From the sequence record PZ445451.1: a stretch of DNA of 64,000 nucleotides; one strand, 5' to 3'. The notes under the pieces are model-generated. The model was not told where the DNA came from. It saw only the letters and a program-made list of their open reading frames with translations, and ran no database searches. The DNA is from a phage. Shown one piece after another: positions 42,552 to 61,573 of the stretch (position 1 is the stretch's first letter; every line of letters begins with the position of its first letter). The position numbers were made by a program, and so were the translations under genes.

Positions 42552-42554
42552 AAT

Positions 42555-44010: not shown

Positions 44011-44196
44011 CTATTGTTCTTTCTCAACTTTACGCAGTTCATCTCGGCAATTGTTTTGATATTTTTGATCATTTAGTTCCTCCTTTGTAAGGACTGTAAT
44101 TAGTAGTTCATTAACAAGTTTTGGAATTGATTTCCCTTCTGCCTTTGCGCGATTTAACAACGCGTTATAAGTTGCAGAGTCAAAATTAATATTCAT
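44011..44196 (-). CDS. Ribbon-helix-helix-like small DNA-binding protein
   Basis: MNINFDSATYNALLNRAKAEGKSIPKLVNELL resembles CopG/Arc-type RHH N-terminus. Confidence 0.4.
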   Translation of the reverse strand: MNINFDSATYNALLNRAKAEGKSIPKLVNELLITVLTKEELNDQKYQNNCRDELRKVEKEQ

Positions 44197-44211
44197 TTGG
44201 TTTTCTCCTTA

Positions 44212-44568
44212 TTACATCCACAGATTATGGAAATACTTAGCAAACAAAATACGACCTTCTAAACGATCTTGCCGTTGTTTTTCATTAACTTCTTCCGGTG
44301 GAGTTGAGTCCTTAAAAGAAGACTCCATTTTTTCAAGAATTTCTAACCAGTGTTCTGCTGCTCGTTCTTCCATATAAGGTAGATAGTCACCTTTAGCGTG
44401 TGGGTACATCCGACGAAGTAACCCACTAGGAATTTTAATATTGTTTGTGGCTATCACTTTTGCACGATACGCAGAAAGTGCATTGTAGATCAGTTTACTT
44501 AGTGTCACATCTAGATCAAGAAGATCACTCTCTTCAAATTGAATTTCATCGTGTACAATTTTCATCAT
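44212..44568 (-). CDS. Hypothetical protein
   Basis: 118 aa ORF. Confidence 0.45.
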   Translation of the reverse strand: MMKIVHDEIQFEESDLLDLDVTLSKLIYNALSAYRAKVIATNNIKIPSGLLRRMYPHAKGDYLPYMEERAAEHWLEILEKMESSFKDSTPPEEVNEKQRQDRLEGRILFAKYFHNLWM

Positions 44569-44849
44569 GCCTTCTCCCGATCTGCGTCTAATTTCAACAA
44601 GAAAGCTGTATACTCTTCCGAACCTTGGTGTAAAAACATGCGATAAGAGCTTACCAGTTTTTTCGTTGTTGTATAACGTTCCATTTCCCCAACAATACCT
44701 CCACCCAGTGTGTAGAGCACAACACCCTCAAACCCAACATGAGTTACTACTTCAACCAAATCTGTGTTATCCCAATGGTAGTTAGGTGACACAATAAGAT
44801 CGCCAACTGTCAGTTTAATGTTTGCTGCTTCGTCTTGTGAATAGTACAT
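44565..44849 (-). CDS. Hypothetical protein
   Basis: 94 aa ORF. Confidence 0.45.
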   Translation of the reverse strand: MYYSQDEAANIKLTVGDLIVSPNYHWDNTDLVEVVTHVGFEGVVLYTLGGGIVGEMERYTTTKKLVSSYRMFLHQGSEEYTAFLLKLDADREKA

Positions 44850-44861
44850 TTTGTTCTCCTC

Positions 44862-45152
44862 TCACATTAAGACACGTTTTGTACCGATGGGAGCATTGTC
44901 GAACATGTTTATCACTTTGTCAAGTTTGTGTACTAACTCGTTCGTAATGTTCCACTCTTTGTATGATCTCCATTGTTTCTTATTCTCACCTACCTGGTGT
45001 AAAACTTTGATTGGTGCATTCAAACGTACATTGCGTTCTTTGTCCTCTTCAAAAGAGGCTAACCATTTTTCGTTATGCCCATGAACAGCAATAATAATGC
45101 CAAAACCATCAAAAGTTTCTGTAATATTCTTAGTTGCTAGTGTGATGTTCAT
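44862..45152 (-). CDS. Hypothetical protein, first gene of the minus-strand block
   Basis: 96 aa ORF next to divergent intergenic region. Confidence 0.45.
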   Translation of the reverse strand: MNITLATKNITETFDGFGIIIAVHGHNEKWLASFEEDKERNVRLNAPIKVLHQVGENKKQWRSYKEWNITNELVHKLDKVINMFDNAPIGTKRVLM

Positions 45153-50445: not shown

Positions 50446-50703
50446 GAATAACGCGCAGGGGCGGTGTTTGTCTCGCGCTCCCGTGTCCCCTCGCCATACA
50501 ATAAGAATAGCATAACCAACAACAAAAGCAAGCGATTATTTTTATCTTTACATTTCTTTACAAATTTATTTTAGACGAGCTACCGGCGATCAACCTTCCA
50601 ACCAGTGCCCCCTGGTATGTTAGCCCCGCCTTTACGCCGTGGGGGTGGCGTTTCCTCTTCTGTATGTAAAACAGTATAAGCCCGATCCCTGGGCTTGTCA
50701 AGA

Positions 50704-50970
50704 TTATTTTTTGTTTTCTTGCCAGGAAAGGACACCTAACCAAAAATACATATCGCCCCGCGCCCCTGGCGGGATCTTGCTTTCCCCGCCGCCACTGCAA
50801 GCCCATAAATAACCATCAGCGAACGGATCAAAATGTTCTATCTCTTCCACCTTATGATCGCCCAGGTTGAGAACGGTTTCAATCTTTAAGCCCGTTGCGC
50901 TTGCTACCTGGTGCACCGTGCCGCCTTGCCAGCCCAATGAGTGCATGAGATGTAAAGGAGTATTTGTCAT
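50704..50970 (-). CDS. Hypothetical protein inside GC-rich island (possible moron)
   Basis: 88 aa minus-strand ORF with RBS-like AAAGAAAGGG; surrounding 0.6 kb is visibly more GC-rich than flanks. Confidence 0.4.
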   Translation of the reverse strand: MTNTPLHLMHSLGWQGGTVHQVASATGLKIETVLNLGDHKVEEIEHFDPFADGYLWACSGGGESKIPPGARGDMYFWLGVLSWQENKK

Positions 50971-51078
50971 GGTATCGCCCTTTCTTTGATGTGCGCCCTG
51001 GTTGGCGCGGTAGAAAGATAATAGCCGTTTCCTTTATAGATAGCAAGCAAAAAAGAAATGAAAAAAGATTAAAAATGG

Positions 51079-51107
51079 TTGACGTTACCAGGATAATAAC
51101 ATATTAT
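51079..51107 (+). promoter_or_regulatory. sigma70-like promoter TTGACG-17-TATTAT
   Basis: Good -35/-10 match with 17 bp spacer upstream of the early gene array. Confidence 0.45.
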
Positions 51108-51234
51108 TCATCTTGTCGAGGGGGGCAAGGCACAACGACAATAAATAAAAGGCGGGTGCAATGCAGGACGGGCAAAGGTGAGGATCTCCATAATCCACCG
51201 TCACAATAACATTACTTATAAAAGGTTGATAACG

Positions 51235-51330
51235 ATGATCAAGAAAGAAAACAGCTTGACGGTTGGAACGATTAACGCTATCATTCTAGCCGTTCCATTT
51301 TGGATTGTAGTAGCGGTTGTTATTTTCTAA
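51235..51330 (+). CDS. Small hydrophobic peptide (31 aa), not in ORF track
   Basis: MIKKENSLTVGTINAIILAVPFWIVVAVVIF, one transmembrane helix. Confidence 0.35.
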   Translation: MIKKENSLTVGTINAIILAVPFWIVVAVVIF

Positions 51331-51339
51331 AAAATATTC

Positions 51340-51395
51340 TTGACAACGTTTTTTAATCTGATAAGATGTATCACATAGGGCGGCAATAGTGCCGC
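51340..51395 (+). promoter_or_regulatory. Promoter plus 5' stem-loop unit (PeSL-like)
   Basis: TTGACA 51340-51345, 16 bp spacer, TAAGAT, then CACATAGGGCGGCAATAGTGCCGC hairpin at predicted transcript 5' end. Confidence 0.65.
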
Positions 51396-51419
51396 TCATA
51401 ACAGAAGAGAGAAATAATC

Positions 51420-51692
51420 ATGGCATCATATAGCGCATCAATGATCGTAACGGGCATGACTGGTAAACCTATGCGCGGTGGCGGATCTTTCGCTAACATC
51501 AATATTGATGGGCGTTTATCCCTGGATGCAGCGATCACCGTGGCACGGGAAACATTTAAAAAAGAATGTAATTTCAATAAACAAGATTATCTCGGCTTCG
51601 TTATTGAAAAAACAGCGCGCTTTGTTGATTATAAAAGCCCGAAAATGATCGACACTACACTAAAAGCGCAAGATGTAGCATTTTTGCTTTAA
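51420..51692 (+). CDS. Early protein, unknown function
   Basis: 90 aa ORF downstream of PeSL unit with A/G-rich RBS. Confidence 0.55.
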   Translation: MASYSASMIVTGMTGKPMRGGGSFANINIDGRLSLDAAITVARETFKKECNFNKQDYLGFVIEKTARFVDYKSPKMIDTTLKAQDVAFLL

Positions 51693-51695
51693 GGC

Positions 51696-51755
51696 TTGAC
51701 ACTGAAAAATAATTTAGTAATATATACCACATAGGGCGGGAAATGGTTTCCCGCC
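51696..51755 (+). promoter_or_regulatory. Promoter plus 5' stem-loop unit (PeSL-like)
   Basis: TTGACA 51696-51701, 16 bp, TAATAT, then CACATAGGGCGGGAAATGGTTTCCCGCC hairpin 51735-51755. Confidence 0.7.
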
Positions 51756-51777
51756 AAATCAAAGAAAGGGTAACACA

Positions 51778-52140
51778 ATGAGCAAGCAAATCAATACTAT
51801 CATGTTAAACCTGGTATCTTTCCGCGATGACGTGAAAAATCTTTCGCGTGATGCAGTGGATGCACGGATCGAAAGCTATCGCACACAGATCGCAACATTA
51901 CCGTTAAAACGTGATCAACATGCCGCTAATATGATGCTTGGTGCTATGATTAAAAAGATGATTCAGTGTGATCTTACCCTGGCTTATGAATATGCTGGCG
52001 ATCTCTTTGTAACGTATAATAAGCCCGTTCCAGGTATGAGCACCACGGAAGAATTGCATGCCTTAAATTTGCGACAAGATGCATGGGATAACATGCGCCG
52101 TGTTATGGTATGGGCCGAAAGCGGTAAAATTTACGAATAA
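51778..52140 (+). CDS. Early protein, unknown function
   Basis: 120 aa ORF, RBS AAAGAAAGGG. Confidence 0.55.
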   Translation: MSKQINTIMLNLVSFRDDVKNLSRDAVDARIESYRTQIATLPLKRDQHAANMMLGAMIKKMIQCDLTLAYEYAGDLFVTYNKPVPGMSTTEELHALNLRQDAWDNMRRVMVWAESGKIYE

Positions 52141-52146
52141 AAACGG

Positions 52147-52200
52147 TTGACATTGCACTAAAACCTGATAAGCTATCTTAAAGCGGGAATTGTTCCCGCT
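52147..52200 (+). promoter_or_regulatory. Promoter plus 5' stem-loop unit (PeSL-like)
   Basis: TTGACA 52147-52152, TAAGCT -10, hairpin AGCGGGAA-TTG-TTCCCGCT 52182-52200. Confidence 0.6.
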
Positions 52201-52218
52201 TACATAGGATAAAACTTT

Positions 52219-52365
52219 ATGAAACAATATGTAATGAGTATCCACACCAAAAACGGCGCTACTGTTACGACTCCGGCACGGTTTGCACTTGTAAACCGTT
52301 GCAAGAGACTAAAACGAGAGTTAAAAAATAACCGTGCAACGGGCTTTAAACGCTGGGGAGGATAA
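52219..52365 (+). CDS. Small basic ORF (48 aa), not in ORF track
   Basis: MKQYVMSIHTKNGATVTT...RWGG; its last codons contain GGAGG 6 nt before the TTG start of the next ORF. Confidence 0.4.
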   Translation: MKQYVMSIHTKNGATVTTPARFALVNRCKRLKRELKNNRATGFKRWGG

Positions 52366-52367
52366 TC

Positions 52368-52628
52368 TTGTTTTTTCTAAAAGTTTGTGATAATGTGATC
52401 GCTTTTGAACATGCTACAACGTTCGACCTGGCGAGATACGCTATCAGGTTTAAAGATAATGTTTATCCCCGTGCTGGCGGCGGTTACACTATTTTTAATC
52501 ACCGTAACGCTCAATTAACGGATATAACTAATCCAGATCCTGGAGTGTATCGGATAGGCTGGCTACCGTCAAAAGACGCTGCAAGCATGTTTAAGGTGTG
52601 TAAACTACTAACAGAAGAGGCGAACTAA
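52368..52628 (+). CDS. Early protein, TTG start, translationally coupled
   Basis: 86 aa frame with no in-frame ATG near 5' end; GGAGG 6 nt upstream of TTG. Confidence 0.45.
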   Translation: MFFLKVCDNVIAFEHATTFDLARYAIRFKDNVYPRAGGGYTIFNHRNAQLTDITNPDPGVYRIGWLPSKDAASMFKVCKLLTEEAN

Positions 52629-52629
52629 C

Positions 52630-53184
52630 ATGGGGCGTGAATATGTGATCCAGTCCTGGGTAAAGCATGATGCTAATGATCCGCGCATAATACCAGATGA
52701 CATGATCGATCACATGGTAGGGTATAGCGGGGAGCAGATAGGAAATCGAGCGGCAAAGAGCAACGGCAACACCAGGACGCGATCCGTTCGTCCTGGATGG
52801 CTGGCGAATGGTAACGCTGACATTGCAAGCGCCGCAGATCCAAGCGATGACGCTAAAAATAATCCCTTGTACAGCATTGATCCGGCTTTTAAGGTGTTGG
52901 AAGAGTATCCCGCTAAATTAGCCGCACTAGATAAGGCATACGAAGAAAAGCGCATGGCCTGGACTGTATACAACACCGCTAAAATGGTGCTAGATGCAAA
53001 ACTAATTAAAGCCCAGGAGAAGATCAATAAACTTGTTACCATAGCGCAAGAGGAAGACCAGGGCGACCAGGAGGAAGAGGAAGAAATCATGCCTACCCTG
53101 GAAGAGGAAGAGATCCAGCCATACATGCCGACAGAAGAGGAAAAAAGACAAGCCCTAAAAAATTATGAAAATTGCATTGTGTAA
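52630..53184 (+). CDS. Early protein with strongly acidic C-terminal tail
   Basis: 184 aa; EEDQGDQEEEEEIMPTLEEEEIQPYMPTEEE tail; ATG overlaps previous stop. Confidence 0.55.
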   Translation: MGREYVIQSWVKHDANDPRIIPDDMIDHMVGYSGEQIGNRAAKSNGNTRTRSVRPGWLANGNADIASAADPSDDAKNNPLYSIDPAFKVLEEYPAKLAALDKAYEEKRMAWTVYNTAKMVLDAKLIKAQEKINKLVTIAQEEDQGDQEEEEEIMPTLEEEEIQPYMPTEEEKRQALKNYENCIV

Positions 53185-53187
53185 GGC

Positions 53188-53243
53188 TTGACATATGCAA
53201 ACAAGCCCCGTAATATGTACCACATAAAGCGGGGCAACGCCCC
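53188..53243 (+). promoter_or_regulatory. Promoter plus short stem-loop
   Basis: TTGACA 53188-53193, 17 bp, TAATAT, then GGGGC-AAC-GCCCC hairpin. Confidence 0.5.
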
Positions 53244-53265
53244 ATAAGGTGAAATAAAAAATCAC

Positions 53266-53293
53266 TTGACACCTGAAATCAGTAAGCTATAAT
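53266..53293 (+). promoter_or_regulatory. Consensus sigma70 promoter TTGACA-16-TATAAT
   Basis: Perfect -35 and -10 hexamers with 16 bp spacer; no following hairpin. Confidence 0.65.
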
Positions 53294-53330
53294 GCTTATA
53301 TAGATTGAAACATTACTAAGGAATAAAAGC

Positions 53331-53510
53331 ATGGCTATTATTGCAAAGACTGAGATCGTAGGTTTAGATTCTATCATCCTGGCATATGAGGAAGCTATAG
53401 AAATGTATGTGGTTTCCTATGGTGATTATATCCGTGAATATAAATCTATTGATCTAGCTTTTGAATGCTATATTCGCCAGGTCAATAAAGCATATGATGA
53501 TTATCGTTAA
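53331..53510 (+). CDS. Small ORF (59 aa), not in ORF track
   Basis: ATG after GGAATAAAAGC; downstream of consensus promoter. Confidence 0.4.
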   Translation: MAIIAKTEIVGLDSIILAYEEAIEMYVVSYGDYIREYKSIDLAFECYIRQVNKAYDDYR

Positions 53511-53529
53511 AAGTTTTAGTCTTGTGCTA

Positions 53530-53558
53530 TTGACAACGAACGATAGTACAAGCATAAT
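53530..53558 (+). promoter_or_regulatory. sigma70-like promoter TTGACA-17-CATAAT
   Basis: Good -35, acceptable -10; no clear hairpin. Confidence 0.5.
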
Positions 53559-53605
53559 AACTTTTATCGGGAATACTCCTAACTAATCAAAAGAGATTAA
53601 AGACT

Positions 53606-53971
53606 ATGGCTAAAAATATCAATGTTTCTGCTTATGCTACCCTGGCTAACACTGCTAAAATTGAACTATCCAGCATTGAAGCGGTACATATTAGCGCCCG
53701 TCGCTGGTTTCAAAAGTCTTATGGTAATACTTATTTCTCTTTGATGGTTGACGTTGAGATCGGCGGTAAACTGATCGAAGTAGTTAACGTTCCGTTTCAA
53801 TATGGTTATGGGGATCATTTTGATACCGTTGCCCTAGAAGAGTTTAGCAAGGTTATCAACCTGGAAGGTAAAGAGTTTTCAAATTATGCTTACCTTTCCC
53901 GCTTTTGCCGTGATAATGGGATCGCTGTATACAGTCATGCAAGCGATGTAAAACGTAAAAAAGATTTATAA
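53606..53971 (+). CDS. Early protein, unknown function
   Basis: 121 aa ORF, RBS AAAGAG. Confidence 0.55.
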   Translation: MAKNINVSAYATLANTAKIELSSIEAVHISARRWFQKSYGNTYFSLMVDVEIGGKLIEVVNVPFQYGYGDHFDTVALEEFSKVINLEGKEFSNYAYLSRFCRDNGIAVYSHASDVKRKKDL

Positions 53972-53977
53972 AAAGCA

Positions 53978-54035
53978 TTGACAGCACGAATAAAAAGCAT
54001 ATAATACTTATATCGAGAGCGGGAATAGTTCCCGC
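53978..54035 (+). promoter_or_regulatory. Promoter plus 5' stem-loop unit (PeSL-like)
   Basis: TTGACA-16-TATAAT (53978-54005), hairpin GCGGGAA-TAG-TTCCCGC 54019-54035. Confidence 0.7.
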
Positions 54036-54059
54036 CTCACTGAAAAAGAGATTAACATC

Positions 54060-54299
54060 ATGGCTAAATCTAAAATGTACAACGGTCACAAAAATAAAAC
54101 TCATTGGAATGTAAGCCTTTGGATTAATAATGATGAATCGTTATACTTATACGCTGTAGGTTTAATAAATGAGTGCGGCAATAAAGATAAAGCGGCGGAT
54201 CTGATGTGCTACAGATTAAAACAGGATGGAATCACTCATACACCTGATGGTTTCAAGTATAGTAAAACTGCAATCCGTGCCGCTATGGTAGGAATGTAA
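54060..54299 (+). CDS. Early protein, unknown function
   Basis: 79 aa ORF downstream of PeSL unit. Confidence 0.55.
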   Translation: MAKSKMYNGHKNKTHWNVSLWINNDESLYLYAVGLINECGNKDKAADLMCYRLKQDGITHTPDGFKYSKTAIRAAMVGM

Positions 54300-54308
54300 T
54301 AAAAGCAG

Positions 54309-54368
54309 TTGACAACGTTTTTTAATCTGGTATAGTTTATCGCATAGGGCGGGAAATGGTTTCCCGCC
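54309..54368 (+). promoter_or_regulatory. Promoter plus 5' stem-loop unit (PeSL-like)
   Basis: TTGACA-16-TATAGT, hairpin GGCGGGAAA-TGG-TTTCCCGCC 54348-54368; core identical to the 51696 unit. Confidence 0.7.
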
Positions 54369-54390
54369 AAATCAAAGAAAGGTTATCATT

Positions 54391-54618
54391 ATGGCTATCG
54401 TTATTGTTCGCGTATCCGGCACGGTTGGAATCTCCCAGGTAGTAGCAGTTATCACCGAGAAGAAAGGGGATGATCTTCACTCCTCATTGAATAGCTGGGC
54501 GGTCGCTAACTTTGGGCAATGGTCGAGCGTTGAGTACATCGAATCCTACCAGGTGCCAACGATTAGCCTGACCGATCTCAACGTTGATCGTCTGTTATGC
54601 CTGGATCAATTAAACTAA
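54391..54618 (+). CDS. Early protein, unknown function
   Basis: 75 aa ORF, RBS AAAGAAAGG. Confidence 0.55.
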   Translation: MAIVIVRVSGTVGISQVVAVITEKKGDDLHSSLNSWAVANFGQWSSVEYIESYQVPTISLTDLNVDRLLCLDQLN

Positions 54619-54626
54619 AAATAATA

Positions 54627-54684
54627 TTGACAAGACAACTAAAATTAGTAAAATGTAATTCATAGGGCGGCAATAGTGCCGCCC
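54627..54684 (+). promoter_or_regulatory. Promoter plus 5' stem-loop unit (PeSL-like)
   Basis: TTGACA-16-TAAAAT, hairpin GGGCGGCA-ATAG-TGCCGCCC 54665-54684. Confidence 0.65.
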
Positions 54685-54705
54685 CTAGTAAGAGAGATTA
54701 TCAAA

Positions 54706-54921
54706 ATGGCTAATATCCGCACCTTGTTAAAAAATGCAAAGCAAGTTTTATTTTCAGATGACGAGTATTTCAACAAAGACATTACAGGCGTGAAAAATTT
54801 AAAAGACGTGAAGGATGTTATCGGTATCCGTGGATCTTTACGTAAAGGTGACATATACGGTAACAAGGTGCAATATAAACTGTCAAAAGATTATGATTTT
54901 ACTTTGACAATTATTTCATAA
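54706..54921 (+). CDS. Early protein, unknown function
   Basis: 71 aa from ATG (MANIRTLLKN); the track start lies inside the 5' hairpin. Confidence 0.5.
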   Translation: MANIRTLLKNAKQVLFSDDEYFNKDITGVKNLKDVKDVIGIRGSLRKGDIYGNKVQYKLSKDYDFTLTIIS

Positions 54922-54927
54922 AACTAC

Positions 54928-54988
54928 TTGTAAACCTGGTAAAATAAAGTAAACTATATTCATCAAGGCGGTGGAATAGCCCACCGCC
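54928..54988 (+). promoter_or_regulatory. Weaker promoter plus 5' stem-loop unit
   Basis: TTGTAA-16-TAAACT, hairpin GGCGGTGG-AATAGC-CCACCGCC 54967-54988. Confidence 0.5.
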
Positions 54989-55012
54989 TAACAAAGAGAA
55001 GAGGAAAACATC

Positions 55013-55183
55013 ATGATCACTTTCACTACCCGTGAAGCCGCTCGCAACGTTGCACGTAAAGTTAACGCCGCCAACCTGGGCGCTACGCTTAAAGCCCCGG
55101 TGAAAGATGAATCAGGAAAATGGATCTTTCCTGGTCTGCGTCACGCTGATAAGCTGGGAACATTAACGTTAAAAAATAAATAA
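55013..55183 (+). CDS. Small ORF (56 aa), not in ORF track
   Basis: MITFTTREAARNVARKVNAANLGATLKAP...; RBS AGAGAAGAGGA. Confidence 0.45.
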   Translation: MITFTTREAARNVARKVNAANLGATLKAPVKDESGKWIFPGLRHADKLGTLTLKNK

Positions 55184-55190
55184 TATCCGC

Positions 55191-55249
55191 TTGACAGTAG
55201 CATCGTTTATAAGTAAAGTAACAACAACGGCGGGAAATGGTTTCCCGCC
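55191..55249 (+). promoter_or_regulatory. Promoter plus 5' stem-loop unit (PeSL-like)
   Basis: TTGACA-17-TAAAGT, hairpin GGCGGGAAA-TGG-TTTCCCGCC 55229-55249. Confidence 0.7.
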
Positions 55250-55269
55250 ATCAATAAAGAGATAAGATT

Positions 55270-55629
55270 ATGAAATCAGTAAAAGCAATTAAAACTTACA
55301 TTGTGTCGGCTATTTCTTTTGATGGTACTACAACCGAAAAAGAAAAAATCACCGAACTGATGCGCCGTTTTAACTCTGAATACTGGTATCAATCTAATCG
55401 TGATCGTTATAATAACAATATGGTACAAGCTGTTAAAAGCTGGTTACAAGGTTTACCGTCAGATATCAATATCGCTTTTAATTATAACGAGATCGATCAA
55501 TTATTAATTGAATGGAAGTACATAAAAGAAACAAGCAAAGAAACAACCGTTACCCGTGAGCGGGAAAATTATTGGTTATATATTGCAAGCATGATCGTAA
55601 CTTTGGCAAAATATCATAACGTAGCGTAA
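55270..55629 (+). CDS. Early protein, unknown function
   Basis: 119 aa ORF, RBS AAAGAGATAAG. Confidence 0.55.
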   Translation: MKSVKAIKTYIVSAISFDGTTTEKEKITELMRRFNSEYWYQSNRDRYNNNMVQAVKSWLQGLPSDINIAFNYNEIDQLLIEWKYIKETSKETTVTRERENYWLYIASMIVTLAKYHNVA

Positions 55630-55643
55630 TCGAGAGGAAAAAC

Positions 55644-55781
55644 ATGAACGCATCACAGCAGATCGAAAAATTCAACCGCAACAAAGCGAGTAAAGATTGG
55701 AACGAAGAGATCACCAAGAAAGGCGACAAGCGGAACAAAACAAAAAGAGATCGCAGCAGCAAAAGATACTGGAACGAATAA
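55644..55781 (+). CDS. Small lysine/arginine-rich ORF (45 aa), not in ORF track
   Basis: ATG after GAGAGGAAA; followed by terminator. Confidence 0.4.
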   Translation: MNASQQIEKFNRNKASKDWNEEITKKGDKRNKTKRDRSSKRYWNE

Positions 55782-55786
55782 CAAAA

Positions 55787-55810
55787 AAGGGCGCAATAAG
55801 CGCCCTTTTA
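55787..55810 (+). terminator. Rho-independent terminator AAGGGCGC-AATAA-GCGCCCTT + TTT
   Basis: 8 bp GC stem followed by T run. Confidence 0.65.
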
Positions 55811-55899
55811 GCTTATATAGAGGCTTGTTGCTTATAGGCAAGGGTAACGCCAGGATAAGCCTATAAACCACGTTAGACGGCTTTACAGGAGCTTTAAAA

Positions 55900-56082
55900 A
55901 TGAAATTAGAGGAAATAAGCAAGGCACTAGCCCAGGGGCAAAGGTTATGCGCCCGATATCGTGATCAATATGGCTTCATAACTAGCGGCGTGATCCTGGG
56001 GATGGAAGGCAATAAGATTTTTATTGACACGTTGAAAAACGTTGTATATAGTGACAATATAATCTCAATAAAACATATATGA
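55900..56082 (+). CDS. Hypothetical small protein
   Basis: 60 aa ORF after ACAGGAG RBS. Confidence 0.45.
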   Translation: MKLEEISKALAQGQRLCARYRDQYGFITSGVILGMEGNKIFIDTLKNVVYSDNIISIKHI

Positions 56083-56492
56083 GGCAAGAAATGAAAAAAT
56101 TATTGATCGCTGGTTTACTCTCTTTTGGCATGGTTGGAACATCTAGCGCGGCGATATCCTCCACAGTAGCAGAATTAAGCGCCGTTGATGCAATGGAAAA
56201 CGTCATGATCATTAATAATGCGATCCCCGATGAAATCATGGAGGATTCACACATGATCGCTTATGGTGCTGTTACACAACTAACGGCAAAAATAGATAAA
56301 TCTATTGTTAATGGCTTAAATGAAGATGTACCATGTGAAATTATTACCAGTGTGCTCACTACTCAAAATTTTACGCCGTGGCTAAAAAGTATTCAAAAAG
56401 TACACAGTACAGCCGCAGATCGTAGCAATGAAAAACTAGTGTCAGCACTTGCAACGTATACCCTAGCAAAATGCACCGAAATAAAAGATTGA
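56079..56492 (+). CDS. Secreted/periplasmic small protein
   Basis: ATGA-coupled start; signal peptide MKKLLIAGLLSFGMVGTSSAA (second in-frame ATG at 56091 also possible). Confidence 0.55.
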   Translation: MRQEMKKLLIAGLLSFGMVGTSSAAISSTVAELSAVDAMENVMIINNAIPDEIMEDSHMIAYGAVTQLTAKIDKSIVNGLNEDVPCEIITSVLTTQNFTPWLKSIQKVHSTAADRSNEKLVSALATYTLAKCTEIKD

Positions 56493-56539
56493 CAACATAG
56501 AAAGCACGTTATAAGATACACACAACAAAGGAGAACTAC

Positions 56540-56842
56540 ATGAACGGCATAGCTAAAACGTTTTTTCTTTTTTCTGGTGTAAATGATCCATCAATAAAAG
56601 TCGATAGCGTAAAAGAAAACAATACTATCACCGCTAAATTGTTTCAAGATGAAACAAATAACGTGCTAATCATTAATCTTAAAGAAATAACAAAAGGTTA
56701 TTATACTATTGCTTACCATGCGATCTATAATGCTGGTACTAGTGAGGAAGTGCAAACAAGCAACAACGAAAGCGCGGCGCTACCTGGTGATCTGGTGCTG
56801 GGCGTTATCAGTTTAATTGTCAATGATTTTTTTAAGGAGTAA
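56540..56842 (+). CDS. Hypothetical protein
   Basis: 100 aa ORF after AAGGAG RBS. Confidence 0.5.
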   Translation: MNGIAKTFFLFSGVNDPSIKVDSVKENNTITAKLFQDETNNVLIINLKEITKGYYTIAYHAIYNAGTSEEVQTSNNESAALPGDLVLGVISLIVNDFFKE

Positions 56843-56846
56843 AACC

Positions 56847-56942
56847 ATGCCCTATTTACATTTATTTTTCGGTATCTTATTGACAGGATCTTTTTTCTTC
56901 TGTATGCTTGTTTCTATTGTAAACCACGTTTTAAAACATTAA
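56847..56942 (+). CDS. Hydrophobic micro-ORF (31 aa), not in ORF track
   Basis: MPYLHLFFGILLTGSFFFCMLVSIVNHVLKH; ATG 7 nt after AAGGAG. Confidence 0.4.
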   Translation: MPYLHLFFGILLTGSFFFCMLVSIVNHVLKH

Positions 56943-56951
56943 GGAAACAGC

Positions 56952-57071
56952 ATGAAAATTATTCCCGTACAGTATAGCGTAATAAATCCAGCATATGAGG
57001 AAGGAAGGAAAACAAGCATGGCTTTATGTTGTATTGCTACTATAGCCATGTTATTATACACTGTGTTTTAA
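56952..57071 (+). CDS. Micro-ORF with hydrophobic C-terminus (39 aa), not in ORF track
   Basis: MKIIPVQYSVINPAYEEGRKTSMALCCIATIAMLLYTVF; RBS AAGGAAAC. Confidence 0.35.
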   Translation: MKIIPVQYSVINPAYEEGRKTSMALCCIATIAMLLYTVF

Positions 57072-57100
57072 TAGGTTTTATAGTTGTACGCTTTAAAGGC

Positions 57101-57128
57101 TTGACAATTTTTTGTTATGCTTTAAAAT
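57101..57128 (+). promoter_or_regulatory. sigma70-like promoter TTGACA-16-TAAAAT
   Basis: Good -35/-10; following hairpin degenerate (CGGC-AAAG-GCCG). Confidence 0.5.
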
Positions 57129-57171
57129 ATATCTTGAAAACGGCAAAGGCCGCAAACAAAAGGGTAAAATT

Positions 57172-57495
57172 ATGAAATCTGTGATCGGTGTTTATTTGGA
57201 TAATTCTGATTTTTTCTATCATCGCGCTCGTTTCCTTGATGCTATTGATATGATAGAATCAGGCTTTAAAGAATACCGCCTTGCACATGATGACCTGGAA
57301 GCATTACAGGGCAATAGTGTTTTTACATTGCAAGCGAAAGCACTATGTAAAAGCCGGATCGACATTGCGAGCAAAAAGATAGAACGCGGCATGTCCTGGT
57401 TGCGCACCGCAGAAATCAACATGGGGCAATGGTACGGCAAAAACTTAGAAAATAAACATACCTTTGTCAATGTAGAAAATATTGAAGATTATTGA
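57172..57495 (+). CDS. Early protein, unknown function
   Basis: 107 aa from ATG (MKSVIGVYLD) after AAAGGG; track start lies upstream of the predicted transcript start. Confidence 0.5.
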   Translation: MKSVIGVYLDNSDFFYHRARFLDAIDMIESGFKEYRLAHDDLEALQGNSVFTLQAKALCKSRIDIASKKIERGMSWLRTAEINMGQWYGKNLENKHTFVNVENIEDY

Positions 57496-57557
57496 TTGAC
57501 AGCACATCTAACGAGTAGTATATTGTATCTCATAGAGCGGGGAAATGGTTTCCCCGC
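57496..57557 (+). promoter_or_regulatory. Promoter plus 5' stem-loop unit (PeSL-like)
   Basis: TTGACA-17-TATATT, hairpin GCGGGGAAA-TGG-TTTCCCCGC 57537-57557 (compensatory G:C relative to other copies). Confidence 0.7.
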
Positions 57558-57577
57558 CTTAAAAGAAGAGATAAGCT

Positions 57578-57862
57578 ATGAAGATCACAAAAGCACTTTC
57601 CAACTATGCAGCACGTCGCGGATTATGCTTATCCGTTGAAAACTTAGGGAAAGAAGATTTTTTGTGTTTTTGGGAGCTTGAAAATGAAAGTGAATGGTTG
57701 TTCTCTTATTCTATCTGCGAAGATCAAAACGGTTGTTTGTTAACCTGGCGCGGTAATATCTATCTACCGGAAGAAATCAAAGAAGAATTGCCAGGCACGA
57801 TCATGACTGAGAAACAGCTTAAGGAAGTGATTAATTTTGTAGGGCAAAACATTAAAAAATAA
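57578..57862 (+). CDS. Early protein, unknown function
   Basis: 94 aa ORF, RBS AAGAAGAGATAAG. Confidence 0.55.
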   Translation: MKITKALSNYAARRGLCLSVENLGKEDFLCFWELENESEWLFSYSICEDQNGCLLTWRGNIYLPEEIKEELPGTIMTEKQLKEVINFVGQNIKK

Positions 57863-57863
57863 T

Positions 57864-57920
57864 TTGACACTAGGCAAACAACGTAGTAAAGTTTATCACA
57901 TAGGGCGGCAATAGTGCCGC
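57864..57920 (+). promoter_or_regulatory. Promoter plus 5' stem-loop unit (PeSL-like)
   Basis: TTGACA-17-TAAAGT, hairpin GCGGCA-ATAG-TGCCGC 57905-57920; near-identical to the 51340 unit. Confidence 0.65.
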
Positions 57921-57943
57921 TCATAACAGAAGAGAAACAAATC

Positions 57944-58114
57944 ATGATCCCGACTATGTTTTATGTATCGCGCAAAGGTCACAATATTTTTTGGTCTGAA
58001 GATTTAAATGAAGCCATGACGTTTGCCCGTGATCGTGTTGCTATCGGTGGCGTTAACATTACTGTAACCGATGAAAACGGCATTGAATACTATAACGGCG
58101 ACGATGAAGAGTAA
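57944..58114 (+). CDS. Early small protein (56 aa)
   Basis: ATG (MIPTMFYVSRKG); track GTG start lies inside the 5' hairpin. Confidence 0.5.
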   Translation: MIPTMFYVSRKGHNIFWSEDLNEAMTFARDRVAIGGVNITVTDENGIEYYNGDDEE

Positions 58115-58121
58115 TTAATAA

Positions 58122-58142
58122 GGCGGGGGAGTATTCCCCGCC
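58122..58142 (+). other. PeSL-type hairpin without an upstream promoter
   Basis: GGCGGGG-GAGTATT-CCCCGCC directly after a stop codon and 20 nt before next ATG; no TTGACA/-10 upstream. Confidence 0.45.
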
Positions 58143-58161
58143 GTCAATAAAGAGGTAAATC

Positions 58162-58431
58162 ATGAAAATATCTTTGGACGTTGCAATCAAGGCCATCGAA
58201 TCCGGTTACACCCTGGTAAAAGATGATAAGGCTAAAATAGTGCATCATGTTAACAAGGAAACAGGCGAAAGCATGATCACATATAAAGCCGCCTACTTTC
58301 TCCAATCAGTAGCAGATCCGCGCGTACAACGCCAGGTTACAGCGGCTATTGCTAAAAAATTATGTGCTTTACAGGGCACAAGTTTTAACGAGATCGCCCC
58401 GTGTTTTGACTGGTCGAGCTTGAAAAAATAG
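58162..58431 (+). CDS. Early protein, unknown function
   Basis: 89 aa ORF, RBS AAAGAGG. Confidence 0.55.
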   Translation: MKISLDVAIKAIESGYTLVKDDKAKIVHHVNKETGESMITYKAAYFLQSVADPRVQRQVTAAIAKKLCALQGTSFNEIAPCFDWSSLKK

Positions 58432-58432
58432 T

Positions 58433-58494
58433 TTGACAATATGCTGTTATCTGGTAAAGTGTACGACATAGGGCGAGGCAATAAGGCAACGCCC
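58433..58494 (+). promoter_or_regulatory. Promoter plus divergent 5' stem-loop
   Basis: TTGACA-16-TAAAGT, then ATAGGGCGAGGCAATAAGGCAACGCCC imperfect hairpin. Confidence 0.5.
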
Positions 58495-58513
58495 ATTAAT
58501 GAGGGGTAGAATC

Positions 58514-58618
58514 ATGTTAGAGAAAATTTTCACGGTTGTAATAGTGGGCCTGGCGTTATCGGTTGGATTGGTTGCAACTATGGCTAACATGATCCTATCT
58601 TCCCACGGTATTGGATAA
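58514..58618 (+). CDS. Hydrophobic micro-ORF (34 aa), not in ORF track
   Basis: MLEKIFTVVIVGLALSVGLVATMANMILSSHGIG; RBS GAGGGG. Confidence 0.4.
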   Translation: MLEKIFTVVIVGLALSVGLVATMANMILSSHGIG

Positions 58619-58628
58619 GGTGAATCAA

Positions 58629-58844
58629 ATGATCACGAATAAGACAGGTAAAACAGAATTTTTACGCAGCTTGCAAATAGGTAAACCTGAGATCTGGCAT
58701 TGCACTAAATCCGCGCATAATGAAATGAAAGATTTTACCGCTACTTTACAACGTGTTAAAATATCTATCACACAGAAAAAAGCCTTGTTAGTAGTAGAAA
58801 ACGAGATCCCGCAAACCATTATTATTGTCGAGCGTACAGCATGA
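58629..58844 (+). CDS. Early small protein (71 aa)
   Basis: ATG 6 nt after AAGGTG; track TTG start less likely. Confidence 0.5.
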   Translation: MITNKTGKTEFLRSLQIGKPEIWHCTKSAHNEMKDFTATLQRVKISITQKKALLVVENEIPQTIIIVERTA

Positions 58845-59227
58845 AAACTGAAATCATTAACGAAATGATCAACGGCTATAAAGAAGCCTTTATTTTTGCC
58901 GAACCAGCGACGGATCACAATGGGGAATATATTGAGAATCTAGACGATTATGATTTTTCTCCTAGCGCCCTGAAACGTATTACCAGCGATGTGACCGCCT
59001 TTTGTAGTGCCAATGTTGCCGCTATCTCTGAGGCAATGAGCGACGGCGCTACAGCAAACCAGATCGGGAATGATTTACATTTTACCCGTAACGGTCACGG
59101 CGTAGGTTTTTGGGATCGCCCTGAAATATACACTACTAACACCGCCAACCGTTTAACTGATGCAGCTAAATTAATGCCATTGGTGCATGCTTACATTGGT
59201 GAAGATAATTTGATTTATATTGACTAA
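58841..59227 (+). CDS. Early protein, unknown function
   Basis: 128 aa ORF, ATGA-coupled to previous gene. Confidence 0.55.
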   Translation: MKTEIINEMINGYKEAFIFAEPATDHNGEYIENLDDYDFSPSALKRITSDVTAFCSANVAAISEAMSDGATANQIGNDLHFTRNGHGVGFWDRPEIYTTNTANRLTDAAKLMPLVHAYIGEDNLIYID

Positions 59228-59232
59228 AAGTG

Positions 59233-59290
59233 TTGACACCGATCCCCAATATGTTATTATTTACCACGTAAGCGGGAAATGGTTTCCCGC
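59233..59290 (+). promoter_or_regulatory. Promoter plus 5' stem-loop unit (PeSL-like)
   Basis: TTGACA-16-TATTAT, hairpin GCGGGAAA-TGG-TTTCCCGC 59272-59290. Confidence 0.7.
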
Positions 59291-59314
59291 CAGGTAATCA
59301 AAAAGGTAAATACT

Positions 59315-59704
59315 ATGCGCAACCTGGTTTCTGTTTCTAACGTTGAAAAATTTCAATCTTTACAGGGTATCGTTAACAACGTAGCGCCTTTTTTAGTCAA
59401 CGGCTTGATTGCAAAGATGAAAAATAAACATCATGCGGCATGGTCTGCTTACTGCTTTGATAATGATGAAAAAGCGGCTGAAATGATGCTAAATATGCTG
59501 TTAGACAGTGTAGAATCATCTTTACCGGAAAACATCGCAGAAGAGATCACCTATCGTTATAATATGGCGATCACTTACCAGGAGGTTGCGCAATTTAATA
59601 TGATGGACGATGACGAACAACAGGATCAGGAAATGTTTTGGGAGTATGCTGATCGTCAATCGGCTTTTGATGAAAAATTAGCGATGTATTATAACGAATA
59701 TTAA
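59315..59704 (+). CDS. Early protein with acidic segment
   Basis: 129 aa from ATG after AAAAAGG; track start lies inside promoter/hairpin. Confidence 0.55.
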   Translation: MRNLVSVSNVEKFQSLQGIVNNVAPFLVNGLIAKMKNKHHAAWSAYCFDNDEKAAEMMLNMLLDSVESSLPENIAEEITYRYNMAITYQEVAQFNMMDDDEQQDQEMFWEYADRQSAFDEKLAMYYNEY

Positions 59705-59717
59705 TACACGGTAAAAG

Positions 59718-59745
59718 AAAGGGGCGCACTAAGCGCCCTTTTTTG
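59718..59745 (+). terminator. Rho-independent terminator GGGCGC-ACTAA-GCGCCC + TTTTTT
   Basis: GC stem followed by six T. Confidence 0.65.
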
Positions 59746-60089
59746 TATTCTTTTTTCACGATGGAAACAACACGTAAAGAATAGGCGTAAAGGTGGCGTA
59801 AAACCATCTAAAACCGACTGTAACCGCTTAAACAAGGTAGGAATGATTAATCACCTTACCAGGGTGAAAAAGCTGTTATAAAGCTACCTAGAGCGTTTAA
59901 AGCACATAGGGAATAATTTGCTTTTTATCTTGCCTTTTATCCTGCTTTTGATTATTATTATGGAACGGGCGGCACCTGGGGACAGGGGAAGATAATCACC
60001 GGAAGATCCCGCTATATATTGATAGCTAATACCTATTAAACAACAAAACATCAAAGGAATAAACTATCAAATCTTTACAATCCTACCTA

Positions 60090-60150
60090 TTGACACAGGA
60101 TCACCCTTATACTAATATGTATCCCGTAGGGCGGGAAATGGTTTCCCGCT
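60090..60150 (+). promoter_or_regulatory. Promoter plus 5' stem-loop unit (PeSL-like)
   Basis: TTGACA-17-TAATAT, hairpin GCGGGAAA-TGG-TTTCCCGC 60130-60150. Confidence 0.7.
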
Positions 60151-60168
60151 TGATATAGGAATCATACC

Positions 60169-60402
60169 ATGATCGAACAAATTAAAAGCACTACACCAAA
60201 TGTTAACGGCAATGTTTCACACTTTATCGGTGATAATGAAAGGGGCACACCATACGCCGCCGTAACCGTGCAACCTAATGGCGATTATTGGTTTACCGTG
60301 TACGGATCATACTCTTTCGGACGCCCGGCACATGATAAGATCTTGCAAGCGGTTAAACCTGCGGGGAAGAATATCACAGCAGAAAAATTTTATAAAAAAT
60401 AG
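60169..60402 (+). CDS. Early protein, unknown function
   Basis: 77 aa ORF. Confidence 0.55.
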   Translation: MIEQIKSTTPNVNGNVSHFIGDNERGTPYAAVTVQPNGDYWFTVYGSYSFGRPAHDKILQAVKPAGKNITAEKFYKK

Positions 60403-60403
60403 C

Positions 60404-60432
60404 TTGCTTTATTTCTTCTGTTAACTTATAGT
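60404..60432 (+). promoter_or_regulatory. sigma70-like promoter TTGCTT-17-TATAGT
   Basis: Acceptable -35/-10; downstream GTAGGGC start conserved but hairpin degenerate. Confidence 0.4.
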
Positions 60433-60477
60433 TATCGCGTAGGGCAAACAATTTTAAACGGTAAACGAGGAATCACC

Positions 60478-60861
60478 ATGAGCAATATCATCAACCTGGC
60501 AGCGACTGTAAACGGTAAAGATTTTAACGGCGCTGTAGACCGTGATCCTATGTGGTGCTTATCAGTGTTTAAAGGCGACCTGGTTGAAGTTAGAACAACC
60601 GAAGGCTATAGCGATGATTATAAATGCGAGATCCATTTACATAACTGGTACACGGGGAAAACTTATGCGCTGAATCACGCATTTATCGGGAAAATTGAAT
60701 ATCGCGAAATGATCGACGAAGAAACGGGGCAAGATTTTAGCGATTATGTTTATATCCGTTCAGAAACATTAGCCGAACGCTTGATCGAGAAAATGAAAGC
60801 AAAAAATAAAATTAATTTAGCTCATTGGCTTGATATAACAAATGATCCGGCTTACAAGTAA
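60478..60861 (+). CDS. Early protein, unknown function
   Basis: 127 aa ORF, RBS ACGAGGAA. Confidence 0.55.
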   Translation: MSNIINLAATVNGKDFNGAVDRDPMWCLSVFKGDLVEVRTTEGYSDDYKCEIHLHNWYTGKTYALNHAFIGKIEYREMIDEETGQDFSDYVYIRSETLAERLIEKMKAKNKINLAHWLDITNDPAYK

Positions 60862-60876
60862 ATAACATTTCACACC

Positions 60877-60903
60877 AGGGCGCACAAAGCGCCCTTTCTT
60901 TTT
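60877..60903 (+). terminator. Rho-independent terminator AGGGCGC-ACAAA-GCGCCCT + TTCTTTTT
   Basis: 7 bp GC stem and T-rich tail ending the early gene array. Confidence 0.65.
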
Positions 60904-61106
60904 ACCTAAATAAAGATGATAGCTTTTACCTATCAAAAACGTTCACCGAAAAAAGTGAATAGATCGCGGTATCGAGCTAATCAAGGAGCAGATGAACAAC
61001 CATACCATGAAGATCATAAGGCGCTTACAACGTGTTTTAGACCGCTTATTTTTAATTTCTCAATGTAACTATCGGGCAAAAACAGCCTTTTTCTTGTCTT
61101 TCCTCT

Positions 61107-61182
61107 TAAATGATAATCATTCTTATTTATAGCTGATTATTTATGCAATAAACTGCATAATGCAATAATGATAATCATTCTT
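61107..61182. promoter_or_regulatory. Two Fur-box-like sites
   Basis: AAATGATAATCATTCTTA (61108-61125) and AATAATGATAATCATTCTT (61164-61182); the latter matches the Fur consensus at 16 of 19 positions. Confidence 0.45.
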
Positions 61183-61573
61183 AACTTATGACCATCTAAC
61201 CTATAAAATAATAAGTTATCTAACTAAATTAAAACTAATTATCCCACCTTTATTTATAACTTACTTTTACTATCTCATTGATAACCTTATATTAAACAAC
61301 AATAACCAATATAAATCATTACTAAGCTAACTATAATCTATCTAACCCTTAAAACTATAACTATAATCTATCGAATTGTTGCACAAAGTAACTATTAAAT
61401 TGTTAGTAACTTTACTAAATAATTAATATCCTATCTATTTATGATCTAATCTTTACCTTACTATCTATTACCTAAATAACCATTTCATACAGAAATTATT
61501 TCATACAATAACTATAACAAGAAATATAATTCGCAAGCGTATCATTAGCAGCCTATGCCGGACACATAGGCGG

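Follow-up and report, generated by a model that had tools for sequence, protein, structure and literature searches.

Promoter-early stem-loops (PeSLs) have been described in the T4-like phages RB49/phi1, T4/PST and KVP40/nt-1, where a strong sigma-70 promoter is combined with a stem-loop acting as terminator or attenuator, and where they mediate a modular shuffling of ORFan genes (PMC2839356, PMC4122927). The PeSL stem-loop separates the promoter hexamers, overlaps them or lies 5′ of the −35; its furthest downstream position is immediately ahead of the transcription start (PMC2839356, PMC4122927). Here, we analyzed a 64,000-nucleotide stretch of phage DNA (PZ445451.1; hereafter the window, whose numbering is used unless a record is named), in which an array of promoter-plus-hairpin units precedes small genes, each hairpin lying in the predicted 5′ leader. 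Leaders with short stem-loops are known from other systems: 5′ stem-loops stabilize the ompA and papA mRNAs, and the leader of phage T7 late transcripts (phi10) begins with a conserved short stem-loop thought to stabilize the mRNA. The 5′-terminal stabilizing stem-loops of the E. coli ompA and papA mRNAs were reportedly worked out by Emory, Bouvet, Belasco and co-workers, whose papers are cited in PMC3997798. The window units are best described as a variant of the promoter-stem-loop cassette in which the stem-loop has moved into the 5′ leader, present in two subfamilies of large coliphages.

Window positions 51300–60500 showed 100% identity to Escherichia phage PaulScherrer (Bas60, MZ501100.1, 150,425 bp), genus Justusliebigvirus, of the phi92-like group. 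Window position 1 corresponds to record position 32676, and the array region to record 83910–93536. The phages concerned belong to the BASEL collection and were isolated on E. coli K-12. About 30 small plus-strand genes of 31–184 aa are present in the array region, all annotated as hypothetical, and the ten array proteins tested all matched PHROG families of unknown function. The gene content of the array varies among close relatives.

Sequence reading and pattern scans located 14 promoter-plus-hairpin units on the plus strand between 51340 and 60149; the original prediction had counted about 14, and 14 are present where it had placed them. The array also contains one promoterless hairpin, four hairpin-less promoters and one decayed unit, and one orphan unit lies on the minus strand. 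Each unit consists of a TTGACA-like −35, a spacer of 16–17 nt, a TAnnnT −10, about 7 nt, the motif (C)(A/G)TAG and a hairpin. The −35 is an exact TTGACA in 13 of the 14 units, the one at 54928 being TTGTAA. In the window, the hairpins have perfect GC-rich stems of 5–9 bp with loops of 3–6 nt. The intergenic regions of the array are very regular in length (81–91 nt, with a repeated unit of ~85 nt) and run in the order stop codon, A-rich tract, promoter, hairpin, A-rich leader of ~20 nt and ATG. This leader carries an AAGAG-type Shine-Dalgarno sequence, and the stem end is followed by the ATG after 17–25 nt in 15 units. The units are listed below; the first coordinate is the start of the −35, hairpins are written as 5′ arm/loop/3′ arm, and minimum free energies (MFE) are in kcal/mol.

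51340–51397, plus strand: unit 1, TTGACA-16-TAAGAT, cACATAG, hairpin GCGGCA/atag/TGCCGC with core 51380–51395 and a stem lengthened by G·U and G-C pairs; MFE −14.4, z −5.5; gene 51420–51692.
51696–51755, plus strand: unit 2, TTGACA-16-TAATAT, hairpin GGCGGGAAA/tgg/TTTCCCGCC at 51735–51755; MFE −15.4, 45.1 bits to the covariance model; gene 51778–52140.
52147–52201, plus strand: unit 3, TTGACA-16-TAAGCT, hairpin AAGCGGGAA/ttg/TTCCCGCTT at 52181–52201, only 6 nt past the −10; gene 52219–52365.
53188–53243, plus strand: unit 4, TTGACA-17-TAATAT, weak hairpin GGGGC/aac/GCCCC at 53231–53243, z −1.6, then a second, hairpin-less promoter at 53266–53293.
53978–54035, plus strand: unit 5, TTGACA-16-TATAAT, hairpin GCGGGAA/tag/TTCCCGC at 54019–54035; gene 54060–54299.
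54309–54368, plus strand: unit 6, TTGACA-16-TATAGT, hairpin GGCGGGAAA/tgg/TTTCCCGCC at 54348–54368; gene 54391–54618.
54627–54684, plus strand: unit 7, TTGACA-16-TAAAAT, hairpin GGGCGGCA/atag/TGCCGCCC at 54665–54684, MFE −16.9; gene 54706–54921.
54928–54989, plus strand: unit 8, TTGTAA-16-TAAACT (weaker −35), hairpin AGGCGGTGG/aatagc/CCACCGCCT at 54966–54989; MFE −18.7, z −6.4; gene 55013–55183.
55191–55249, plus strand: unit 9, TTGACA-17-TAAAGT, hairpin GGCGGGAAA/tgg/TTTCCCGCC at 55229–55249; gene 55270–55629.
57496–57557, plus strand: unit 10, TTGACA-17-TATATT, hairpin GCGGGGAAA/tgg/TTTCCCCGC at 57537–57557; gene 57578–57862.
57864–57922, plus strand: unit 11, TTGACA-17-TAAAGT, hairpin GCGGCA/atag/TGCCGC with core 57905–57920; gene 57944–58114.
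58433–58494, plus strand: unit 12, TTGACA-16-TAAAGT, variant hairpin GGGCG...CGCCC with a large interior at 58471–58494, MFE −13.3.
59233–59290, plus strand: unit 13, TTGACA-16-TATTAT, hairpin GCGGGAAA/tgg/TTTCCCGC at 59272–59290.
60090–60149, plus strand: unit 14, TTGACA-17-TAATAT, hairpin GCGGGAAA/tgg/TTTCCCGC at 60131–60149; gene 60169–60402.

The stem variants named in the original prediction were all recovered, namely GGCGGGAAA/TTTCCCGCC (51735, 54348, 55229), GCGGGGAAA/TTTCCCCGC (57537), GCGGCA/TGCCGC (51380, 57905) and GGCGGTGG/CCACCGCC (54967). Its reading of the units as promoters also held; they are of the sigma-70 type, with near-consensus hexamers and an enriched pattern: TTGACA-N16-18-TAnnnT occurred 34 times in the window compared to 4.35 ± 1.97 times in shuffles, and 20 of the matches lie on the plus strand of the array.

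Folding was then analyzed for the 14 unit hairpins, the promoterless hairpin and the orphan one. All 16 folded as a single stem-loop, with MFE from −8.7 to −18.7 kcal/mol and z from −1.6 to −6.4, and for 12 of them at most one of 200 shuffles folded equally well. The leader 3′ of the hairpin was unpaired in all 16 folds, leaving the ribosome binding site open. The hairpin-less promoters at 53266, 53530, 56489 and 57101 gave folding z from +1.0 to −1.3. Among 49 units from seven phages, the stem started 10–12 nt past the −10 in 43. The whole genome contains 57 exact-consensus promoter matches, and a GCGG...CCGC-type hairpin follows only matches that lie in the array; one further GCGG-type hairpin follows the near-consensus TTGACT promoter of the orphan unit on the minus strand. 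A covariance model of the hairpin, built from seven window units, was searched against both strands of the 150 kb, and all matches with E < 0.01 fell in the array or at the orphan site; the plus strand scored ~20 bits above the reverse complement. The leader hairpin is a specific feature of the array context. An Rfam scan of 50500–61500 with permissive E-values returned chance-level matches only, none near the gathering score. A weak covariance-model match (18.9 bits, E = 0.014) was also seen at 19403–19422, between the minus-strand genes bas60_0056 and 0055, where the hairpin GAGGGGGA/tta/TCCCCCTC has no T tract and no recognized promoter.

The stems are conserved. We compared orthologous units between the window and 11 relatives, the units not being chosen for their hairpins. 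The stem arms showed 95.4–96.4% identity, similar to codon positions 1–2 of the genes (94.6–96.7%) and above the promoter spacer (87.6%) and codon position 3 (88.4%), indicating purifying selection on the stem. Identities of 98.7% for the −35 hexamer, 94.8% for the −10 hexamer, 94.2% for the leader and 91.5% for the loop were observed in the same comparison. Across phages, 20 lower-stem sequences, with stems of 5–10 bp and loops of 3–6 nt, occupy one fixed position.

Whether the stem acts as RNA or as DNA was judged from its non-Watson-Crick positions. The core stems contained 351 Watson-Crick, zero G·U, two A·C and five other positions; they are nearly pure Watson-Crick palindromes and, therefore, cannot alone separate RNA from DNA, so that only enclosed or terminal wobble positions are informative. 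In a loop-anchored table, the non-Watson-Crick positions enclosed by a further Watson-Crick pair were G·U in 18 cases, A·C in 3 and other combinations in 7. In a model-fitted alignment of 29 distinct sequences, 97.3% of the cells paired compared to 41–68% in slid controls, both sides changed at four of nine pairs, and 12 cells were G·U, with the G always on the 5′ side. A G·U on the plus strand is an A·C on the other strand, and G·U was tolerated more, which favors folding of the plus-strand transcript. Both the loop-anchored table and the model-fitted alignment are biased towards the structure, to which the alignment was fitted. MAFFT unit alignments were not used for covariation, being anchored on CATAGGGCGG with the 3′ arms out of register, and RNAalifold on one of them recovered just five pairs. 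The compensatory changes claimed in the original prediction stand in that pairing is kept despite varied stems, but they are mainly differences between paralogues and not changes within lineages of orthologues, and the core stems alone are no proof of selection at the RNA level.

The tails of the hairpins were compared to those of terminators. The 8 nt past the stem contained 0–2 T in 14 of 15 window stems, the tails being A-rich on the plus strand, whereas the true plus-strand terminators at 59722 and 60877 contain seven T in the same measure. Likewise, a terminator scan called zero unit hairpins on the plus strand and detected the real terminators at 59716 and 60877. The remaining strong GC hairpins genome-wide are all terminators built as A-tract, stem, tetraloop and T-tract, a class apart from the unit hairpins. 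The following terminators bound blocks of the array.

55785–55809: intrinsic terminator AAAAGGGCGC/aataa/GCGCCCTTTT, bounding the first block of units.
59716–59744: further intrinsic terminator bounding an array block.
60877–60895: further intrinsic terminator bounding an array block.

Given the missing U tract, the variation in sequence and length, and the tolerance of G·U far above A·C, it is well supported that the unit hairpin is an RNA-level element in the predicted 5′ leader and is probably neither terminator nor DNA operator.

The units are also where relatives differ. Blastn of the array against eight relatives mapped 60 homology breakpoints, 30 of which fell in units that make up 11.6% of the region; the remaining ones mostly lay no more than about 15 nt from a unit, or where a gene starts. 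Phage Paula has an extra promoter-hairpin-gene cassette flanked by two AAAAAATAGTTTGACAA copies, phage inny has another extra cassette flanked by two copies of the A-tract plus TTGACA, and phage muut lacks 51087–52138, with the junction in GGTTGAC. Breakpoints inside hairpins were observed at 51384, 51754, 54670, 55229, 59283 and 60132. This microhomology at the junctions, in the form of direct repeats of the A-tract and −35, shows exchange via the repeats. It is well supported that the units are a recombination module swapping gene cassettes between related phages, and the junctions show at sequence level how genes of unknown function come and go.

The same architecture with other stems was found in Phapecoctavirus (phAPEC8, BI-EHEC), Citrobacter phage Tr1, Vequintavirus (EmilHeitz), UPEC06 and Serratia phage ChuuTotoro, and Certrevirus F1M1E gave two model hits. 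The occurrence in rV5/phi92-like phages given in the original prediction was borne out, with the element found in Justusliebigvirus, Phapecoctavirus, Vequintavirus and others. Parts of the array region are common to 429 phage records.

The features of the array other than complete units, and the orphan unit, are as follows.

58122–58142, plus strand: promoterless hairpin GGCGGGGGA/gta/TTCCCCGCC with one G·U inside, MFE −17.3, located 7 nt past a stop codon and 19 nt ahead of the ATG at 58162.
60407–60440, plus strand: decayed unit, TTGCTT...TTATAGT...cgcGTAGGGCaaac, with the start-site motif kept and the hairpin lost.
26675–26733, minus strand: orphan unit outside the array, TTGACT-16-TATAGT, aCATAGA, hairpin GCGGAGGA/ttg/TCCTCCGC at 26675–26693, 5′ of the 325-aa gene bas60_0067; MFE −15.0, 38.7 bits.
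53266–53293, plus strand: hairpin-less promoter, consensus TTGACA-16-TATAAT.
53530–53558: further hairpin-less array promoter.
56489–56517: further hairpin-less array promoter.
57101–57128: further hairpin-less array promoter.

Decayed hairpin remnants were seen 3′ of two of these promoters, CGGGAAtaCTCC after 53530 (53565–53585) and CGGCaaagGCCG after 57101 (57141–57152), which suggests that hairpins are sometimes lost.

Next, we analyzed the predicted start site in 110 distinct, strongly folding units. A C occupied position 7 past the −10 in 86 of them and a purine position 8 in 100, with T, A and G coming next. A pyrimidine (−1)/purine (+1) context at this distance is common for start sites, and the transcript most likely starts with (A/G)UAG. 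From this predicted start, 3–4 unpaired nucleotides precede the stem in 74 of the 110 units, 0–2 in 27 and at least five in nine, and the predicted +2 is U in 89. The hairpin had originally been placed at +1 to +25, which is slightly off; it would span about +4 to +30, with 3–4 unpaired nucleotides first in most units. RppH and RNase E require at least two unpaired 5′ nucleotides and prefer at least three, and RppH disfavors a pyrimidine at position 2 (PMC8833179). Among GCGGCA-type units, inspection by eye found cATAG...CTCAT in seven and cGTAG...CTCAC in eight, with three exceptions. The first base, thus, appears to covary with the base past the stem and, if this is real, the 5′ end would be paired.

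We propose that each unit would head a cassette that is complete in itself and serves early expression. The near-consensus promoter would be bound by host sigma-70 RNA polymerase, which would start at the purine 8 nt past the −10, with C at −1, giving a transcript that would run from (A/G)UAG through the stable GC hairpin and a short, unstructured, A-rich Shine-Dalgarno leader to the AUG. The hairpin could act as a leader stabilizer by restricting 5′-end-dependent attack by RppH and RNase E. It could also act as an insulator, folding locally before the ribosome binding site emerges, leaving almost no naked AU-rich leader and keeping the ribosome binding site open regardless of the following gene. 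Present in one orientation ahead of many small genes, the ~85-nt unit would, moreover, supply the homology for insertion, deletion and exchange of cassettes among related phages. To this combined explanation, an early cassette with an RNA leader stabilizer or insulator that serves as a recombination module, we assign a probability of roughly 0.5. Stabilization or insulation would most likely be the role of the hairpin; the stabilizing action is proposed with moderate confidence, since the hairpin would hamper RppH and RNase E in some units and only marginally in most. An RNase III site was rejected as a candidate role, because stems of 5–10 bp would be too short.

Several observations weigh against this combined explanation. 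With the predicted overhang of 3–4 nt, seen in 74 of the 110 units, RppH and RNase E would have sufficient unpaired sequence (PMC8833179), so that sequestration of the end would be marginal. The absence of G·U from the core stems is, taken alone, compatible with a DNA palindrome, and the G·U counts come from related copies that are no independent events. Four array promoters have no hairpin and one hairpin is maintained without a promoter. Sequence conservation at the loop apex would not be expected if the role were structural alone. Breakpoints between genes are partly expected, as only intact cassettes survive. A literature search for this phage group gave no mapped transcript 5′ end, the lone candidate concerning a T5-like phage.

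The conserved apex leads to the alternative that survives best, in which the hairpin is an RNA operator whose apex is recognized by a phage or host protein coordinating the early transcripts. We consider this possible, although unlikely, and the same holds for the effects that it could have, which include antitermination as with lambda N/boxB, translational repression as with T4 RegA, and targeted cleavage or protection. AAU(A/G)G lies across the loop in 53 of 82 distinct units, compared to 1.3 on average and at most 6 in shuffles, and it does so on 20 lower stems; purines make up 82% of the 5′ arm, and this holds for nearly all units. The promoterless hairpin at 58122–58142, moreover, is conserved in Paula, muut, inny, PD06 and phAPEC8, and in at least six phages in all, the 3–4-nt overhang is suboptimal for end protection, and three real terminators divide the array and could be read through. 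However, orthologue identity is lower in the loop (91.5%) than in the stems (95–96%), the Vequintavirus loops differ (tgt, aac, tac, aaag), and the apex similarity may reflect common descent and gene conversion among units. No boxA-like partner stands next to the hairpins: CGCTCTTA with at most one mismatch gave 35 matches compared to 33.8 expected, which is chance level, and only two such matches occur at hairpins, both being the 3′ arm of GCGGCA stems. No candidate binding protein was found either, the tested array proteins all being of unknown function. If the RNA operator were real, any gene recombining into a cassette would automatically come under shared temporal control, and a factor reading the conserved loop would represent a new mechanism of early-gene control.

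A second alternative takes the units mainly as recombination repeats, with the palindrome kept by gene conversion or template switching, or for exchange itself, and with no role in expression. The breakpoints and indel junctions in the units, several of them within the hairpin, agree with it, as do the near-perfect Watson-Crick palindromes of the stems and the precedent of PeSLs, for which exchange and mini-circles were described (PMC2839356). Nevertheless, the explicit junctions are mostly in the −35 and A-tract rather than in the hairpin, and the promoter by itself would offer enough homology. The hairpin also holds one position with respect to the start site in two subfamilies of phages, and the bias of G·U over A·C suits RNA better than DNA. 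We regard recombination alone as an improbable account of the palindrome.

It is still less probable that the hairpin terminates or attenuates transcription arriving from upstream units, as proposed for the T4-like PeSLs. PeSL stem-loops did lower lacZ read-through in RB49/phi1 (PMC2839356), the unit stems are GC-rich and stable, and the record of phage Paula labels these hairpins terminators. Yet a hairpin at +5 to +30 would abort the transcript of its own unit, and the calls in Paula sit mainly on the opposite strand. The A-rich tails without U tract, the plus-strand scan that misses the unit hairpins and detects 59716 and 60877, and the different hairpin class of the real terminators likewise speak against it.

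Least probable of all is an operator in the DNA, near +5 to +25, bound by a dimeric phage repressor that shuts all early promoters: the location is classic for a roadblock operator, the dyad symmetry is perfect, and putative DNA-binding proteins and transcription factors are, by record annotation, encoded just 3′ of the array, but a sequence-specific dimer would be intolerant of a GCGG-to-CCGC spacing of 8–14 nt with stems of 5–10 bp and loops of 3–6 nt, the inner positions differ between units yet remain complementary, and G·U is accepted where A·C is not.

The preferred reading, a leader hairpin acting on the transcript, has consequences for existing records: these hairpins are labeled phage-specific promoters in the case of phAPEC8 and terminators in that of Paula, and they are overlooked for phi92 and rV5. 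The phAPEC8 record gives the hairpin 20-mer GTAGGGCGGCAATGGTGCCG as a "putative promoter determined with PHIRE" beside a "host dependent promoter", and in the Paula record most of the "terminator" features have been put on the wrong strand. Automatic tools seem to have produced the two labels as artefacts. An N4-type hairpin promoter was rejected as an account of the phAPEC8 label, which is better explained by PHIRE detecting the repeated 20-mer. The phi92 record annotates coding sequences and ribosome binding sites and nothing else; the rV5 paper gives promoter sequence as far as 7 nt beyond the −10, and the hairpins are absent from its terminator table. Loop ATGs (AAATGG) can also mislead start-codon calling. 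The annotated start of bas60_0140, ATG 59279, lies within the hairpin loop of unit 13 (AAATGG), whereas ATG 59315 has a Shine-Dalgarno sequence and PHROG 15485 aligns over 1–129/129 to the shorter protein; the true start is, thus, probably 59315 and not 59279. The gene bas60_0137 (annotated start 58499; 58499–58517) may likewise start at a downstream ATG near 58515.

Further observations were made near the units and elsewhere in the window. A conserved non-coding block at 59930–60090, between the terminator at 59716–59744 and the unit at 60090, carries a promoter-like TTGCCT-17-TATTAT followed by AACGGGCGGCACCTGGGGACAGGGGAAGATAATCACCGGAAGA... and has no Rfam match. It showed 87–99% identity to Justusliebigvirus and Phapecoctavirus loci and 79% to UPEC06, while 59745–59930 is not conserved; the block may encode a small RNA or have a regulatory function. 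Another type of conserved 5′ leader, hairpin-less, is formed by (G)GCATAGGCAAACGAAAGC after TTGACG-18-TATAAT and has the same CATAG start motif as the hairpin units. It was observed in Certrevirus F1M1E, UPEC06, Tr1 and ChuuTotoro (L009 228 and 2961; L007 8196; L008 11079; L010 10577). About 20 "Campylobacter phage" records (A150, C3, A145, B15 and others; host C. jejuni) showed 85–96% identity to the coliphage region; the stated host is surprising, and these may be mislabeled or contaminated submissions. A match of 942 bp was also seen at a record end of "Enterococcus phage heks". By record annotation, 9043–12354 (record 41718–45029) encodes a DNA polymerase with an intein, and 35621–38392 (record 68296–71067) a UvrD/Rep helicase with an intein.

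Finally, the units were compared with the known systems. They share with PeSLs a near-consensus sigma-70 early promoter, a stable stem-loop, a Shine-Dalgarno sequence with ATG, and a repeated intergenic cassette of ~70–100 nt. In both, the cassettes precede small genes of unknown function in variable (hyperplastic) regions, and indel or replacement junctions between close relatives lie in the cassettes. The promoter, the stem-loop, the variable-region ORFans and the recombination junctions are, thus, common to both, and the stem-loop geometry is not. The unit stem-loop always lies within the predicted transcript, beginning at about +4 to +6, whereas that of PST lies upstream of the promoter. 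The PeSL stem-loop is assigned a terminator role, in contrast to the unit hairpins without U tract, and the stems are unrelated (GGGAGTA... or G-run to C-run in PeSLs, GCGG...CCGC in the units). PeSLs occur in Straboviridae, the units in Stephanstirmvirinae and Vequintavirinae. In the first 50 kb of RB49, four of the six stem-loops near exact-consensus promoters overlap the promoter and two are T-tailed terminators. In the window, 12 exact-consensus promoters have their own hairpin as the strongest one nearby, and in all 12 it lies downstream, 6–14 nt past the −10 and without a T tail. A literature search, which did not cover the PVP-SE1 and phi92 genome papers, never found "PeSL" together with rV5, phi92, PVP-SE1, Phapecoctavirus or Vequintavirinae, and a paper citing PeSL work alongside phAPEC8 cites PeSLs for T4-like phages only. 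The PeSL likeness noted at first, therefore, stands for the PeSL-like recombination sites; it does not extend to the geometry or to a literature link with rV5/phi92, PeSLs having been defined in T4-like phages.

Compared to intrinsic terminators, the unit hairpins have a similar GC-rich stem of 6–9 bp and loop of 3–6 nt, but they have no U tract and are placed at the transcript start. With the lambda nut site (boxA and boxB), they share a short hairpin that has a GC stem and a conserved loop rich in purines, close to an early transcript start. However, the units are without boxA, number at least 14 copies (one per promoter) compared to two in lambda, have longer stems, and no N-like protein is known for them. 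The phi10 leader of T7 is similar as a phage promoter family whose transcripts open with a short stem-loop; it differs in using T7 RNA polymerase for late genes, in having one fixed sequence, and in having no known role in cassette exchange.

The ompA and papA stem-loops resemble the units in having a short hairpin near the 5′ end (the predicted one in the units) followed by an accessible ribosome binding site, and in the expected action, which is to hinder RppH and 5′-end-dependent RNase E. In both, structure is conserved over sequence, and in the units the loop apex is conserved too. They differ in that ompA and papA are individual host genes for which 5′ ends were mapped and half-lives measured, whereas the units are a repeated family with a predicted start, usually 3–4 unpaired nucleotides and a conserved loop apex. 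The unit, with its consensus promoter, leader hairpin and open ribosome binding site, represents a compact natural expression module, and it extends the idea of a mobile regulatory cassette past the T4-like phages to Stephanstirmvirinae and Vequintavirinae.

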